Below, piece by piece: positions 1 through 4,783 of a stretch of 4,783 bases of DNA (positions are counted from its first letter, which is position 1; every line of letters begins with the position of its first letter). The stretch lies in assembly GCF_003334815.1 (NCBI RefSeq), contig NZ_QOWO01000075.1. The stretch is one strand, 5' to 3'. The notes beneath the pieces are model-generated. The model was not told where the DNA came from, made no database searches, and saw only the letters and a program-made list of their open reading frames with translations. The translations under genes were made by a program, and so were the position numbers. This stretch comes from Escherichia coli (GTDB taxonomy: Bacteria > Pseudomonadota > Gammaproteobacteria > Enterobacterales > Enterobacteriaceae).

Positions 1-200
1 GGTCCCTCCTTCCCGTCTGCCGTGATTTTCCGGTCGTTCACCCGCTCAGATTTCGCGGTCTCACCCTCCAACTCCCGTCAGCCGTGTGCGTCAGGCTGCG
101 GCTTCCCTTGCGCCCTTGCATCCCCGCCTTATCGCCCGGCTTTTCTGGAGGCACGGCACCGCCCGGTGTCGCGGAATATGTGAACAACGGAGGAAATCCC

Positions 201-626
201 ATGCAGTATGCGAAACCTGTCACTCTGAACGTTGAAGAGTGCGACCGCCTTTCCTTTCTGCCTTACCTGTTTGGCAACGATTTTCTGTATGCCGAGGCGT
301 ATGTGTACGCGCTGGCGCAAAAAATGATGCCGGAATATCAGGGAGGCTTCTGGCATTTCATCCGCCTGCCGGATGGTGGCGGTTACATGATGCCGGATGG
401 CGACCGTTTTCATCTGGTCAACGGTGAAAACTGGTTTGACCGCACTGTGAGTGCTGATGCCGCAGGTATCATCCTGACTTCCCTTGTGATTAACCGCCAG
501 TTGTGGCTGTACCACGACAGCGGGGATGCGGGACTGACACACCTTTACCGGATGCGTGATGCGCAGTTGTGGAGCCACATTGAATTTCATCCCGAATGTA
601 ACGCGATTTACGCAGCACTGGACTGA
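201..626 (+). CDS. klcA: Anti-restriction protein, ArdB/KlcA family (141 aa)
   Basis: ATG at 201 preceded by GGAGG (189-193, 7-nt spacer). Translation carries family-typical blocks: [36 protein letters not shown] and C-terminal AIYAALD. The 141-aa length fits this family; the upstream in-frame start at 84 has no RBS and would give a poorly coding GC-rich extension. Confidence 0.85.
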
Positions 627-635
627 TTAACGGAC

Positions 636-654
636 GGGGCGGCGATGCCGCCCC
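636..654 (+). other. Intercistronic GC-rich hairpin (8-bp stem GGGGCGGC/GCCGCCCC, 3-nt loop), no U-tract
   Basis: Perfect inverted repeat 636-643 / 647-654 lying between the klcA stop (624-626) and the next gene's RBS (GGAG 661-664). Downstream sequence is not T-rich, so not a classic intrinsic terminator. Confidence 0.6.
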
Positions 655-672
655 TGTAAAGGAGACGAGAAC

Positions 673-1092
673 ATGTACTGTACTGTTAAAGAAATTATCC
701 GCGAAGTGCTGAATACAGACGTGCCGGACAGTGAATGTGTTTTTGCCGTGGTGCTGACCCGCGGGGATGTGCGCCACATAGCCCGGGACTGGAACCTGTC
801 AGACGATGAGCTGGAAACCGTCATGCAGCGGCTGGACGATGCTTTTGTATATGGCGCATGTGACAGAGTTGTTTCCGATATTGTCAATGAACTGATGGAG
901 GAAAAGCGCGTAAACCGTCTTGTAACAGTCCCTGCGGTGCTGCTGGAAAAAGTGATGGTGATGGCTGGTAGTGAAATTTATCGCCTCCATGCTGTAGGGA
1001 GCGAGAACGGGGGCGACGGTGACGCATTTGTCAGGGAAGAACGTGAGATTATGCGGGTAATGCGTCAGGCACTGGACGGGGAGAACGGGTAA
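673..1092 (+). CDS. Hypothetical leading-region protein, 139 aa (possibly DUF1380-like; assignment from memory, unverified)
   Basis: ORF with GGAG at 661-664 and 8-nt spacer to ATG 673. Acidic protein with coding-like composition; same strand and tight spacing with neighbours. Stop TAA 1090-1092 overlaps the next start. Confidence 0.75.
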   Translation: MYCTVKEIIREVLNTDVPDSECVFAVVLTRGDVRHIARDWNLSDDELETVMQRLDDAFVYGACDRVVSDIVNELMEEKRVNRLVTVPAVLLEKVMVMAGSEIYRLHAVGSENGGDGDAFVREEREIMRVMRQALDGENG

Positions 1093-1283
1093 TGAATATC
1101 AGCACGGAAACCCGCGAAATTCTGCGTAATTACAGGGCCGTGATTAATGCGCGGCGTCGTGAAATGGGGCAGAAACCGCTCACCACCGCGCAGATTGTTG
1201 ATGAAATCTGTGATTTTGTGGCGAATCAGCAGGCGGTTTTCCTCGGTGGTCACTACATCCTTCAGGGCAGCAGGCACAGGTGA
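1092..1283 (+). CDS. Small hypothetical protein, 63 aa, translationally coupled to the upstream ORF
   Basis: TAATG stop/start overlap at 1090-1094; GGGGAG at 1078-1083 with 8-nt spacer. No recognisable motif; called on context and coupling only. Confidence 0.5.
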   Translation: MNISTETREILRNYRAVINARRREMGQKPLTTAQIVDEICDFVANQQAVFLGGHYILQGSRHR

Positions 1284-1290
1284 TACAGGG

Positions 1291-1310
1291 CAGGCGGTGG
1301 AGGCCGCCTG
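1291..1310 (+). other. GC-rich hairpin just downstream of the 63-aa ORF stop (7-bp stem CAGGCGG/CCGCCTG, 6-nt loop)
   Basis: Inverted repeat 1291-1297 / 1304-1310 seen directly; begins 8 nt after the stop at 1281-1283. Confidence 0.45.
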
Positions 1311-1448
1311 TCAGCCCGCGCGAAAACCCCTGGCAGGCTGGCGCCTGCCGGAAGGGATGCGGGCCACGCTGGCGCGTCGCCCGTTACCCTTCCCGTTTGT
1401 GATGTGTCCGGAATGTTTTTTCCTGATGTTATGTTTCTGTGGTTACTG

Positions 1449-1477
1449 TTCTTCTTCTTCTTCTTCCTCTTCTTTCC
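1449..1477. repeat. Polypyrimidine simple-repeat tract containing (TTC)6 at 1449-1466
   Basis: Direct reading: ttcttcttcttcttcttc followed by ctcttctttcc; pyrimidine-only on the + strand for 29 nt. Confidence 0.9.
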
Positions 1478-1837
1478 GTTCCTCTCCTGTTTATGCCTTT
1501 TCCGGGCGTCCCCCTGGCGGGGCGGGCTGTCGTGAACGGAGCCAGCGGAGCTGTCTCCGCCCTGGCGGGCTTCCATCCCTGACGCAAAACCCCGGGTTTG
1601 CAGCGACCGGAACGGTCGCGCCACCCTTGTCGCGCCGTGGCCTGCGCTCCTGGCATCCCGGCAAAAAGACGCCGGGATGTAAGGCGCAACGCCGTTTCGC
1701 GCACGCGCTCTCCGTCGTTGCGGCGGGTCCCTGCTCATTGCCTGCCGGGTGCCACACACCCGTATGAGTCCCTGTCGCCGGGGGCTGATACAGCCACAAC
1801 CTGCCGCACTGACTGTCCAGGGTAAATGAACAGCCCA

Positions 1838-1873
1838 CAAAATTTTTTACCCAGAACCCGGTAAAAAATTTTG
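1838..1873. other. Perfect 14-bp AT-rich inverted repeat (CAAAATTTTTTACC / GGTAAAAAATTTTG) with 8-nt spacer
   Basis: Arms 1838-1851 and 1860-1873 are exact reverse complements. Flanked by a further imperfect pairing, 1813-1821 with 1882-1890 (8 of 9), suggesting a longer imperfect hairpin centred near 1855. Confidence 0.8.
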
Positions 1874-2252
1874 CGTTCTGCCCAGGACAGGTGCGTCAGG
1901 CCGTGGCAGTGATGCCCCTTGCGGCGAAGGTTCTCAAACGGGTGAAGTTCATACCACAGGGAATACAGCAGCAGGTTCCCGCGAAACGTCAAAACCGCGG
2001 CTCCCGAAACTCAACGGGTGATGTTCTTTAAAAATCAGGATTTATTTCAGGCTCCGGCAATACGCATTTATGTGTTCTGTCAGCATCCTGCTGACAGGTA
2101 ATGAGAACGCAGGAACAGAAGGAGGAATACACCGGAAAACGTCAGATGCAGATATGAAAAAAGCAGGTCAGGGACCTGCTTAATCCACGCCGAAGAGACT
2201 GTGCAACCAGTCTTTAAGGCACTGTTACCAACCTGTCATAAGGTATCCATTT

Positions 2253-2483
2253 ATGACTGTAAGCATTGTTTCACCTTCCGCAGCGGCTGTAAAGCCCCGT
2301 CGTCATACCCGTTTCAGACGCGAAGACATCCCCGCGCCGGAAATTGACCCCGTGCTGAAAGCCTTCGGGCGACACATTGCCCGGAGTTTTCGCCGGGGGC
2401 GTGGTGTACACATCCCCGCCATGAAAAACACGGCTTTCGGGCAGGTGCTCCGCACACTCGAACTGAAACGCGCTTTTAACTGA
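2253..2483 (+). CDS. Small arginine-rich hypothetical protein, 76 aa (possibly DUF905/UPF0401-like; unverified)
   Basis: ATG 2253 with weak SD (AAGG 2240-2243, 9-nt spacer); first ORF downstream of the structured element; co-oriented. Many R/K residues (KPRRHTRFRRED, RSFRRGRG). No motif recognised with certainty. Confidence 0.55.
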   Translation: MTVSIVSPSAAAVKPRRHTRFRREDIPAPEIDPVLKAFGRHIARSFRRGRGVHIPAMKNTAFGQVLRTLELKRAFN

Positions 2484-2491
2484 TGAGGTGA

Positions 2492-2511
2492 GCCGCCCCG
2501 CGAGGGGCGGC
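2492..2511 (+). other. Intercistronic GC-rich hairpin (8-bp stem GCCGCCCC/GGGGCGGC, GCGA tetraloop)
   Basis: Perfect inverted repeat 2492-2499 / 2504-2511 between the stop at 2481-2483 and the RBS AGGAG 2523-2527 of the next gene. Uses the same octamer pair as the 636-654 hairpin, in swapped arm order. Confidence 0.6.
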
Positions 2512-2534
2512 AACAGACAGAAGGAGAACATTTT

Positions 2535-3896
2535 ATGACATTATCAGCAATCACCATGACCGCCCCGGAAGCCGCCAGCCCGGTGCAGATGTACCGCGCG
2601 ACCTACTCACCGGATGATAACAAACTGCGCCTGTATGCCGCGTCACGTCTTGACCCGGAGACGTATAAAAAAGTGCATGATGCCGGTTTTCGCTGGGCAC
2701 CAAAACAGGCGCTGTTTGTCGCGCCAGCCTGGACACCGGGCCGGGAAGACGTGCTCCTCTCACTTGCCGGAGAGATTGAGGATGAAGACAGCACGCTCGC
2801 TGAACGTCAGGAAGCACGGGCGGAGCGGTTTACCGGATACAGCGGAAAGCGGGCCAGTGAATCCGCACAGGCACTTGATGAAGTGGAAAGACTGGCCGCG
2901 ATGATCCCGCCCGGTCAGCCCATTCTTGTGGGGCATCACAGCGAACGCCGCGCCCGTCGTGATGCGCAGCGTATTGAAAACGGCATGAAACGTGCCGTGA
3001 TGCTCTTTGAACGTGCGGAATACTGGGAAGAACGGGCGCGGTCGGCACTGCTTCACGCGAAGTATAAAGAACGCCCGGACGTTCGCTGGCGTCGTATCAA
3101 AAAAATCGAAGCGGATTTGCGCAAGGCTGAAAAGACCATCGCACAGTCGCAGAAATATCTGACGATGTGGCGGGCTGAATCGCTGGATCTGAATATGGCA
3201 AAACTCATCAGCAGTCATGACCATATCAGCGCCTGTTTCCCGCTGGATACGTATCCGCGCCCGGCAGAAAAAAGCCAGTATGAAGGGAGCCGGTCGTTAT
3301 GGTCGGCCCTGGATGATGACATCATCACCACGGAGCAGGCCCGCGAAATTGCGATCCGCTGTCATGAACGGCAGATTCAGCATCAGCAACGCTGGGTTAA
3401 CCACTATCAGAACCGCCTGATCTATGAGCGTGCCATGCTGGACGAAAGCGGCGGCGTGGTTACCCGGACACAGGATTTTGAGCCGGGCGGACAGGTTTTC
3501 AGCCGGGGCGAGTGGCTGACCATCATCCGCGTGAACAAAAGCAACGGGGCGGTGAGTTCAGTCACAACGCCGAATTACAGTTTTCTCGGGTACAGCGGCA
3601 CGATGAAAGTGACGCCCGATCGCATCACGGACTACAAAGCACCATCGGCAGAAGAGGCTGCCGTCGCCAGTCAGGCCGCGAAGCGTCCGCCGGTAGTCAA
3701 CTATCCGGGGGAAGGTTTCCGGGAAATGACAAAGGCACAGTGGGCCGCCCTGCCCCGGGACTGTAAGGCCGTGCGCAGTGTGGCAGAGACAGAAGACCAC
3801 GGGGCATACCGCTACCGCCGCACAATGGATAATAATTTCCGCCTGGTGAGTGTGTATATTACCGACATGAAAATCACGGAAATCCCACAGAAATAA
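2535..3896 (+). CDS. Protein of unknown function, 453 aa (possibly DUF3560-type leading-region protein; unverified)
   Basis: Long ORF with RBS AGGAG at 2523-2527 and 7-nt spacer to ATG 2535. Central highly charged, probably helical segment (ERQEARAERF ... RRARRDAQRIENGMKRAVMLFERAEYWEERARSALLHAKYKERPDVRWRRIKKIEADLRKAEKTIAQSQKYL). No catalytic motif recognised by eye. Confidence 0.9.
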   Translation: MTLSAITMTAPEAASPVQMYRATYSPDDNKLRLYAASRLDPETYKKVHDAGFRWAPKQALFVAPAWTPGREDVLLSLAGEIEDEDSTLAERQEARAERFTGYSGKRASESAQALDEVERLAAMIPPGQPILVGHHSERRARRDAQRIENGMKRAVMLFERAEYWEERARSALLHAKYKERPDVRWRRIKKIEADLRKAEKTIAQSQKYLTMWRAESLDLNMAKLISSHDHISACFPLDTYPRPAEKSQYEGSRSLWSALDDDIITTEQAREIAIRCHERQIQHQQRWVNHYQNRLIYERAMLDESGGVVTRTQDFEPGGQVFSRGEWLTIIRVNKSNGAVSSVTTPNYSFLGYSGTMKVTPDRITDYKAPSAEEAAVASQAAKRPPVVNYPGEGFREMTKAQWAALPRDCKAVRSVAETEDHGAYRYRRTMDNNFRLVSVYITDMKITEIPQK

Positions 3897-3901
3897 GGTA
3901 T

Positions 3902-3927
3902 ATCCCCCCGGGAAATCCCCGGGGGAT
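3902..3927 (+). other. Intercistronic hairpin containing two CCCGGG palindromes
   Basis: ATCCCCCCGGGAAATCCCCGGGGGAT: outer 7-bp stem 3902-3908 / 3921-3927, a C-C mismatch, inner 3-bp stem 3910-3912 / 3917-3919, loop AAAT. Lies between the stop at 3894-3896 and the RBS GGAG 3931-3934. Confidence 0.5.
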
Positions 3928-3942
3928 GACGGAGATAATGAC

Positions 3943-4506
3943 ATGCACAGTCAGTTAAGAGAACGTATCCGGCTGCTGCGCGCAAGGCTGGATAACGCCG
4001 CACCGGTTGCTGAAATCCGGGCTGAATCTCAGCTTTTTGTGACACCTGCCCCGGTCTGTGATCGCCTGGTGACGCTGGCGGAAATCAGCAATCGTGATCA
4101 CATTCTGGAACCCTCTGCCGGCACCGGGGCCATACTGCGGGCGATTCGGGATACCGCGCCGGAGGCCATGTGTGATGCGGTGGAGAGCAACAGCGGGCTG
4201 GTCCGGTATCTGCGGGAAAATTTTAACGGTGTCAGGGTACAGTGTGGCGACTTCATGGAATGGCAGCCGGTGCAGTATTACAGCCGGATTATCATGAATC
4301 CGCCGTTCAGCCACGGGCAGGATATCCGGCATATCCTGCGGGCCTTTTCCCTGCTGCGTCCGGGTGGCGTTCTGGTCGCCGTCTGTCTGAACGGGCCACG
4401 CCAGCAGGAGAAGCTGTTACCGTTTTCTGACATCCGCGAGGAGCTGCCGCGCGGCACGTTTGCTTATACCCATGTTCCGACGATGATTATTCGTCTGCGC
4501 GCCTGA
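3943..4506 (+). CDS. Orphan SAM-dependent methyltransferase, 187 aa (amino-methyltransferase fold; N6-adenine/N4-cytosine DNA MTase-like, no recognisable target-recognition domain)
   Basis: RBS GGAG 3931-3934 with 8-nt spacer. Motif I (AdoMet binding) ILEPSAGTGAIL near residue 55; motif IV NPPF near residue 119 (IIMNPPFSHGQD). Motif order I then IV and the small size indicate a minimal MTase core. No adjacent restriction endonuclease gene in the window. Confidence 0.85.
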   Translation: MHSQLRERIRLLRARLDNAAPVAEIRAESQLFVTPAPVCDRLVTLAEISNRDHILEPSAGTGAILRAIRDTAPEAMCDAVESNSGLVRYLRENFNGVRVQCGDFMEWQPVQYYSRIIMNPPFSHGQDIRHILRAFSLLRPGGVLVAVCLNGPRQQEKLLPFSDIREELPRGTFAYTHVPTMIIRLRA

Positions 4507-4577
4507 TGACACAGGCAGGCGGGAGGATAAATGCCCGTCTGCCCGTGCCGGGAAAAAGACCGCGCGCCGGTGGCGCT

Positions 4578-4609
4578 GAAAGGGGCCGCGCTGACGCGCC
4601 GCCCCTTTC
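4578..4609 (+). other. GC-rich hairpin downstream of the MTase (13-bp stem with one mismatch, 6-nt loop), contains GCCGCCCC
   Basis: GAAAGGGGCCGCG (4578-4590), loop CTGACG, CGCCGCCCCTTTC (4597-4609). Followed only by a short TTTC, so at best a weak terminator. Confidence 0.5.
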
Positions 4610-4654
4610 ATTGCGCGGACGTTCTGCTGTGGACTTCTGTCTTTTCAGAACGGT

Positions 4655-4783
4655 CATTTGTCTGTTACTGATGATGTTGTTGTTCCTGCTACTGCTACTG
4701 CTACTGTTCTTCTTTTTTCTGCTGCTCTGATTACTGTCTGTTTTGTTGTTCTCCTGCTTATGCCTTTTCCGGGCGTCCCCCTG
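4655..4783 (+). promoter_or_regulatory. Start of a second copy of the Frpo/ssi-like element (truncated by window end)
   Basis: 4751-4783 (ctcctgcttatgccttttccgggcgtccccctg) matches 1484-1516 at 32 of 33 positions. Upstream there are shared ttactgttcttctt and ctgatgtt blocks plus a different simple-repeat tract. Confidence 0.6.
4670..4750. repeat. Compound simple-repeat tract: (GAT)2(GTT)3 at 4670-4684, (CTGCTA)3 at 4686-4703, T-rich pyrimidine run
   Basis: Direct reading of the sequence; differs in unit and copy number from the tract at 1449-1477 in copy 1. Confidence 0.9.

Follow-up and report, generated by a model that had tools for sequence, protein, structure and literature searches.

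The stretch of DNA analysed here, a 4,783-nt sequence of Escherichia coli that we call the window (positions 1–4783, its gene-bearing strand being called plus), very probably comes from within the leading region of an F-like (IncF, MOBF, MPF_F) plasmid. All of its protein genes point toward the origin of transfer (oriT) as it is placed in related plasmids, and they lie behind hairpins that resemble the single-strand DNA promoters of the F plasmid. The leading region of IncF plasmids, the rule of gene orientation in it and its single-strand promoters have already been published, and the biology of the window is thus known. Between two copies of one of these promoter repeats, the window also carries a three-gene cassette that classical F does not possess. 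A first-pass annotation, made from the sequence alone, had predicted from the strict co-orientation of the genes that oriT and the transfer genes lie to the right of the window.

Relatives of the window

More than 5000 plasmid records match the window, mostly from Escherichia, Klebsiella, Salmonella, and Shigella, and of 5426 complete E. coli genomes, 3869 contain plasmids that match it. The closest relatives cover 100% of the window: NZ_CP074882.1 at 98.0% identity, AP026744.1 at 97.3%, and NZ_CP028383.1 at 96.9%. MOB typing, which had been proposed as a check, classes AP026744.1 and NZ_CP028383.1 as conjugative MOBF/MPF_F IncF plasmids, and the same F-type tra genes are present in NZ_CP074882.1. 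The gene neighborhood was read from 12 loci in which the entire segment is present (L001, L002, and L004–L013), three of them obtained by BLAST, eight through the exact methyltransferase protein, and one from weaker hits. Classical F (NC_002483, here L003), from which the cassette is absent, was compared separately.

Right flank and the transferred strand

In 11 of the 12 whole-segment loci the window is followed, rightward, by a copy of the Frpo promoter repeat, ssb, a DUF905 gene, a gene for a 650-aa ParB-like protein, psiB, and psiA. The start of ssb lies about 0.54 kb past the end of the window in the three closest relatives and about 0.54–0.86 kb past it in the others. In seven of the 12, as in F, there follow hok, a DUF932 gene, a gene for an SLT transglycosylase, an F-type nic motif of the form GTGTGGTG(C/A)TTTTGGTGGTGAG, and traM. 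The order in F, read rightward, is the 63-aa open reading frame (ORF) shared with the window, one Frpo, ssb, DUF905, the ParB-like gene, psiB, hok, DUF932, SLT, and traM; psiA is absent from the listed gene table of F. In the seven relatives the nic motif stands between the SLT gene and traM, 8.1–8.8 kb beyond the right edge of the window, and in F it takes the same position. It occurs on the minus strand, as GTGTGGTGCTTTTGGTGGTGAG, in all eight loci that reach oriT.

TraI of F cuts this strand and stays attached to its 5' end, the nicked strand reading 5'-GTGT|GGTGCTTTTGG-3' at the TraI site. With the nic motif on the minus strand, the minus strand is the transferred strand, and hence the template of all six plus-strand genes of the window. 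The relatives also show what is expected of a leading region: the segment lies on the side of oriT that is transferred first, within the first ~15 kb after nic, the transferred strand is the template, klcA is found in the window, and ssb, psiB, and psiA are downstream. If transfer proceeds at about 620 nt/s, the published rate (PMC9849209), the window would reach the recipient approximately 13–22 s after the start. Early transient (zygotic) expression in the recipient has been shown for the homologues in F and pESBL (PMC9849209, PMC12672017). The prediction that the genes are transcribed from the transferred strand toward oriT, with ssb, psiB, psiA, a lytic transglycosylase, and oriT to the right and an early entry into the recipient, is thus borne out in the relatives that reach oriT.

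Single-strand promoter repeats

The central element of the window is a complete Frpo/ssi repeat (class 1, ssp1) of 541 bp on the minus strand at 1483–2023. It is 91.7% identical to Frpo2 of F, which lies immediately upstream of ssbF, and 82.5% identical to the element at the Frpo1 position of F (upstream of ygeA), and it aligns to 12969–13510 of L001 and 9675–10216 of L004, in both cases just upstream of ssb. Its core is an imperfect hairpin of the minus strand, 315 nt long (1695–2009) with 116 pairs, whose fold has a free energy (dG) of -153.6 kcal/mol and a z-score (z) of -7.5. When 23 distinct Frpo copies are compared, 102 pairs are 98.7% paired, against 40–48% in slid controls, and seven pairs carry compensatory changes; the observed values were reached by 0–1 of 500 shuffles. 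Masai and Arai are said to have described Frpo and ssi, the class 1 single-strand DNA promoters, in 1997. In F, Frpo1 and Frpo2 are needed for early expression of their downstream genes from single-stranded DNA and are promoters only when single-stranded (PMC9849209), and the class 1, 2, and 3 promoters, whose start sites were mapped by 5' rapid amplification of cDNA ends in pESBL, are conserved in F (PMC12672017). The window copy is similar to Frpo1 and Frpo2 of F and ssi1–3 of ColIb-P9 in its transferred-strand hairpin, about 315 nt compared with the 328 nt given for Frpo (PMC9849209, PMC7690428), and, like Frpo elements, it stands directly upstream of co-oriented leading genes; unlike the F copies, it precedes an unstudied cassette rather than ssb or ygeA. 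By homology and hairpin, the copy at 1483–2023 is predicted to be a single-strand promoter.

A second Frpo copy begins at the right edge, where its first 34 nt occupy 4750–4783 of the minus strand. The direct repeat pairs 1432–1516 with 4699–4783, the looser similarity of the second copy beginning at 4699, and in the relatives this copy extends to about 33 nt before ssb.

The left edge holds a promoter hairpin of another class. Positions 1–165 of the minus strand, upstream of klcA, contain the right arm and center of a class-2 single-strand DNA promoter hairpin (ssp2, "Frpo3"), its left arm lying approximately 73 nt beyond the left edge. The segment is homologous by position to the F region upstream of yfgB/ardB, with 90.5% identity, and that region of F is the published ssp2/class 2/Frpo3 element (PMC12672017, bioRxiv 2026.01.09.698686, bioRxiv 2025.04.03.647016). 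Positions 113–165 are complementary to the F sequence just left of the window, and in L004 the corresponding stretch of the minus strand folds as a long hairpin over window positions -73 to 165 (dG -101 kcal/mol, z -4.2). Induction of the klcA operon has been seen in F and pESBL (PMC12672017).

Each class 1 copy is preceded by a long spacer. The one at 1284–1482 carries a pyrimidine-rich (TTC)8.7 microsatellite at 1449–1474, found with Tandem Repeats Finder, and a three-base difference at 1449–1451 that is unique to the window falls inside this repeat. The spacer after the cassette, 4507–4749, is the region of greatest divergence between the window and its relatives; it includes an inverted repeat that forms a 15-bp GC hairpin (4577–4610) and, again by Tandem Repeats Finder, a (CTGCTA)3.5 repeat at 4686–4706. 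Hits to miRNA and small RNA families near 4512–4618 were dismissed as chance. The two microsatellites each stand just upstream of a Frpo copy and vary between the window and the relatives. Some Klebsiella pneumoniae plasmids (NZ_CP101543.1, NZ_CP107347.1) have seven to nine Frpo-hairpin places compared with three in the typical E. coli IncF plasmid, which suggests that units with a single-strand promoter have been amplified there.

Genes of the plus strand

Six coding sequences were found on the plus strand in the ORF list (201–626, 673–1092, 1092–1283, 2253–2483, 2535–3896, and 3943–4506), and the RefSeq annotation of close relatives gives an identical set. In equal-length comparisons with the relatives, the third codon positions take most of the substitutions in every gene (1/1/23 at the three codon positions of the DUF3560 gene and 5/2/27 in klcA), a bias that points to coding under purifying selection in all six. 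Five of the six proteins were left without a family by NCBIfam.

The first unit begins with an antirestriction gene of the klcA/ardB type (201–626, 141 aa), which is yfgB of F and yciB in R100-like annotation. The protein belongs to Pfam PF03230 (Antirestrict; E 2.4e-26, positions 2–92 of the 92 of the model) and to PHROG 10132 (anti-restriction protein), and it is annotated in the relatives as "antirestriction protein." The following DUF1380-family gene (673–1092, 139 aa), so named by RefSeq in the relatives and known as ycjA, comes after a 46-nt spacer that contains a GC hairpin (dG -18.4 kcal/mol, z -3.3) and a Shine-Dalgarno sequence. The start of the third gene (1092–1283, 63 aa) overlaps the preceding stop codon (ATGA). 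This ORF is annotated in RefSeq relatives including F, from which it differs by nine synonymous and two non-synonymous codon changes, and it matches no family in NCBIfam or PHROG.

The first-pass annotation had described the intergenic regions as short and structured, and this fits a part of them. Three spacers are indeed short (46, 51, and 46 nt) and each contains a GC-rich hairpin with an 8-bp stem and dG of -18 to -21 kcal/mol, but a gap of 969 nt lies at 1284–2252, positions 1–200 and 4507–4783 are likewise non-coding, and non-coding DNA amounts to 1589 nt, or 33% of the window. The spacer hairpins (635–654, 2492–2511, and 3903–3926) are followed by no T-run and have a Shine-Dalgarno sequence directly downstream; they may be mRNA-stabilizing or single-strand DNA structures rather than terminators.

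That all six credible coding sequences lie on the plus strand, as also stated at first pass, is upheld by the ORF list, the annotation of the relatives, and the codon-position bias together. The companion statement, that there is no credible minus-strand gene, holds for proteins and fails for RNA (see below). Long ORFs of the minus strand were rejected as genes, being either shadows of plus-strand genes or located within GC-rich non-coding DNA. One of them, of 85 aa at 1735–1992, is a coding sequence in some records and matches PHROG 31045; it was rejected as well, since it lies inside the Frpo hairpin, where all minus-strand frames are open, a feature attributed to high GC content. In other copies 1-nt indels disrupt its frame, and these indicate that the ORF is probably an annotation artifact.

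An antisense RNA at the start of the cassette

The minus strand contains a putative gene for an AS-pc01-like antisense RNA at 2158–2293, with a promoter at 2293–2265, an RNA of approximately 2258–2158, and a terminator at 2181–2161 followed by T6. The match to Rfam RF02875 (AS-pc01) is full-length (model positions 1–99; 68.7 bits, E 5e-11), although the score lies below the gathering score of 79, and the RNA is best described as a putative diverged homologue of AS-pc01, not a curated member. The promoter found by scanning is sigma-70-like (TTTACA-17-TGaAACAAT) and is invariant in the 12 loci. The predicted fold of the RNA has three hairpins (z -3.45), and compensatory changes preserve the second of them across two sequence types; a published primer for reverse-transcription PCR of AS-pc01 (PMC12370729) matches 2166–2186 exactly. 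With its own predicted promoter and terminator, it appears to be a credible gene and an independent unit of the AS-pc01 type. A further AS-pc01 hit on the plus strand (2078–2184, 26.8 bits) was dismissed as chance.

The RNA covers the Shine-Dalgarno sequence and ATG (2239–2255) of the first cassette gene, a 76-aa basic ORF at 2253–2483 that is annotated in RefSeq relatives, and its first hairpin is complementary to both. This arrangement is similar to AS-pc01 of pHK01 (RF02875; Jiang et al. 2017, FEMS Microbiol Ecol 93:fix090), which likewise has three hairpins and a terminator and lies antisense to the beginning of a small ORF of the leading region; the difference is that the middle hairpin and loop 1 of the window RNA are of another sequence type, with compensated pairing. 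The 76-aa ORF differs from that of L005 by four synonymous and two non-synonymous changes and has no family match in NCBIfam or PHROG. In its own mRNA (2234–2257, plus strand), GTCATAAG can pair with TTTATGAC, sequestering the Shine-Dalgarno sequence and the start codon; this fold is weak (dG of -6.8 kcal/mol) and does not differ significantly from shuffles, but its stem is kept in both sequence types.

A DUF3560 protein and a methyltransferase without a recognition domain

The second cassette gene (2535–3896), ydbA, encodes a DUF3560 protein of 453 aa, with the Pfam domain PF12083 at residues 89–206 (E 1.1e-36). A sequence search of the PDB gave no relative of it, and an attempt to read its function from structure was abandoned, the Foldseek comparison with the PDB yielding only coiled-coil noise (best E 0.078); its AlphaFold2 model is of moderate quality (pLDDT 69.5).

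The third gene (3943–4506) encodes a 187-aa catalytic domain of an S-adenosylmethionine-dependent amino-methyltransferase, with the motifs TPAP, EPSAGTG, and NPPF at positions 34, 56, and 119. It matches Pfam MTS and other methyltransferase families, as well as giant proteins' DNA methyltransferase domains in PHROG (E down to 6e-32), and its best PDB relative is the catalytic domain of the N6-adenine DNA methyltransferase M.TaqI (E 9.5e-6). The motifs TP..V, E-P-x-x-G-x-G, and NPPF stand in the gamma order, as they do in the M.TaqI-type (gamma-class) enzymes; unlike those enzymes, the window protein has no target-recognition domain. It is comparable to M.EcoGIX in being a leading-region methyltransferase without a partner restriction enzyme (PMC11541004, PMC12672017), while it belongs to another Pfam family than the M.EcoGIX-like PF01555 methylase that lies upstream of the window in the relatives.

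The two proteins are connected by their homologues. Among the 147 best 50%-cluster representatives of DUF3560 homologues, 101 are at least 560 aa long, and 95 of these contain, C-terminal of the DUF3560 homology, a stretch homologous to the window methyltransferase (E 1e-15 to 1e-39). The [ND]PP[FYW] motif is present in 93 of the 95, and Foldseek hits in the AlphaFold database agree with the fusion. By this fusion, the DUF3560 gene and the methyltransferase gene are very likely a split form of one widespread protein whose parts act together, and the DUF3560 protein probably serves the downstream enzyme as a non-catalytic partner. The fused homologues that were examined sit in other mobile elements, one setting being beside a terminase gene and another an integrase/resolvase island. 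The window pair looks like a split two-part methyltransferase in which the DUF3560 protein may be the recognition half.

The cassette and classical F

The 76-aa ORF, the DUF3560 gene, and the methyltransferase gene form a cassette between two direct 541-bp Frpo repeats that lie 3267 bp apart. Of the 5426 complete E. coli genomes, 2766, or about half, possess it, and 3135 of their records carry it.

Among known plasmids, the window comes closest to the leading regions of F (NC_002483, ~54–66 kb) and of R100/R1-type IncFII plasmids. Its positions 1–2023 are colinear with F at 90.5% identity. The window and F share yfgB/ardB, the DUF1380 gene, the 63-aa ORF, and then Frpo, in the same orientation to nic. 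In contrast, F is without window positions 2024–4749, which hold the antisense RNA, the 76-aa ORF, the DUF3560 gene, and the methyltransferase gene, and it has a single Frpo copy (L003 9071–9610) where the window lineage has two. This single copy is a mosaic: its center resembles copy 1 of the window (95–98%), and its ssb-proximal end is 96–100% identical to the copies upstream of ssb, compared with 82.9% to window copy 1. Such a mosaic is consistent with loss of the cassette by recombination between the repeats.

A model for the expression of the window

From the published work on F and pESBL and from the sequence features above, the following course of events can be proposed. Given the position of nic in the relatives, the minus strand enters the recipient with its 5' end first, so that the right edge of the window arrives before the left and after psiA, psiB, and ssb. 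As in F and pESBL, the incoming single strand would fold into hairpins that mimic double-stranded promoters, and the RNA polymerase of the host would transcribe from them before a complementary strand exists. The strict co-orientation could then be explained, because only genes with the incoming strand as template can be expressed before complementary-strand synthesis. Three units may be served in this manner: the class-2 hairpin (1–165) would drive klcA, the DUF1380 gene, and the 63-aa ORF; the Frpo hairpin (1483–2023) would drive the 76-aa ORF, the DUF3560 gene, and the methyltransferase gene; and the second Frpo copy (from 4750) would drive ssb and the psi genes in the relatives.

Formation of the duplex would extinguish the hairpin promoters. 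The antisense RNA has the non-transferred strand as its template and an ordinary duplex promoter, and for this reason it would be made only after complementary-strand synthesis. Dependent in this manner on the duplex, it could then silence the first ribosome-binding site of the cassette, and may be an off-switch of the cassette once the plasmid is established. Combining these elements, the cassette can be pictured as one for early methylation, with timing in two layers (a single-strand hairpin promoter, and a duplex-only antisense RNA that blocks the first ribosome-binding site), with the DUF3560 protein as a detached substrate-recognition half that serves to modify the incoming DNA, and with gain and loss of the cassette through recombination between Frpo copies, F being the deletion form. 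We offer this combined picture tentatively and regard it, taken as a whole, as rather doubtful.

Alternative explanations

Several points weigh against the assignment of the window to an F-like leading region, or against parts of the model built on it. The flanking context was read from relatives, not from the source replicon, and no identical record or contig was found in PLSDB, in the complete E. coli genomes, or in exact-pattern scans of genome and metagenome contigs that were built on window-specific variants; among the many contigs that encode the exact methyltransferase protein, none equals the window. The SLT transglycosylase gene is on the strand opposite to the other leading-region genes. 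Candidate promoter boxes of the Frpo copy come in two placements: TGGACA at 1818–1813 adjoins an AT-rich stem and an internal loop that is conserved, TTGACG at 1992–1987 is invariant and near the base of the stem, and neither has the canonical 17-nt spacing to a good -10 box. The silencing by the antisense RNA is our inference only.

Other points of this kind agree with a different origin of the window, namely a rearranged or non-conjugative derivative, or a chromosomally integrated F-like relic, in which ssb, psi, oriT, or tra has been lost or displaced. Among the best 5000 plasmid matches, 502 (~10%) are typed as non-mobilizable and 505 (~10%) as only mobilizable. In one of the whole-segment loci, L013 (NZ_CP173444.1, 13835–22835), the window segment and the next Frpo copy run into a fragment of ssb, IS2, a fragment of an integrase gene, and genes for raffinose utilization instead of ssb-psiB-oriT, which looks like a truncation of the leading region mediated by an insertion sequence (IS); in L010 and L012, IS66 follows psiA. 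The matching places in E. coli are chromosomal in 151 of 12112 cases (~1%). With a short query from the methyltransferase gene to ssb, methyltransferase, Frpo, and ssb were contiguous in 2428 of the 3135 cassette-bearing records, a lower bound at the level of megablast. A longer query of 12.9 kb from the window to oriT was uninformative, only 479 records reaching at least 80% coverage, because the stretch from psiA to oriT is mosaic. Against such a derivative, ssb-psiB-psiA is kept in all whole-segment loci other than L013, 80% of the best matches are typed as conjugative, and the window shows no sign of decay, all six of its genes and its Frpo hairpin being intact. We therefore consider a derivative of this sort unlikely, while giving it some weight, and retain the leading region of an F-like plasmid as the source.

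The co-orientation itself might be nothing more than ordinary operon structure, or co-direction with replication, unrelated to the transferred strand. The six genes group into only two or three transcription units, and for this reason their co-orientation within the window alone is not striking and not beyond chance. The relatives, however, have 22 consecutive coding sequences in one orientation, comprising several units, and the nicked strand is the template. Moreover, the gaps hold hairpins that are homologous to proven single-strand promoters and show compensatory changes, and an identical rule of orientation emerged from a survey of 21,907 conjugative elements, all leading-region families of anti-defense proteins, methyltransferases, and single-stranded DNA-binding proteins being oriented for transcription from the incoming T-strand (PMC11541004). 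A cause unrelated to the transferred strand is accordingly very improbable, and an orientation set by the transferred strand is preferred.

A prophage or phage-plasmid segment is hardly credible: KlcA, the DUF3560 protein, and the methyltransferase have PHROG matches, as does even the spurious ORF in the hairpin, and the phage-like or island settings of the fused homologues could be read the same way, but a collection of 50,697 phage records gave no megablast match to the window, all close relatives are IncF plasmids with tra genes, and no tRNA, integrase, or phage structural gene was found in the window or in the flanks of the relatives, save the integrase fragment of L013. The chromosomal or prophage context that the first-pass annotation had named as the opposite of its prediction was thus looked for and is close to absent.

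Significance

Gene content and orientation alone sufficed to place oriT from the sequence without the use of tools. The finding itself matters little beyond correct annotation, and the timing of the cassette and the split methyltransferase are modest leads. Nevertheless, the cassette occurs in about half of complete E. coli genomes and yet is absent from classical F, the laboratory model, and the link between the DUF3560 protein and the methyltransferase provides a concrete lead, open to test, toward a role in anti-restriction or establishment for the clinically dominant IncF plasmids.

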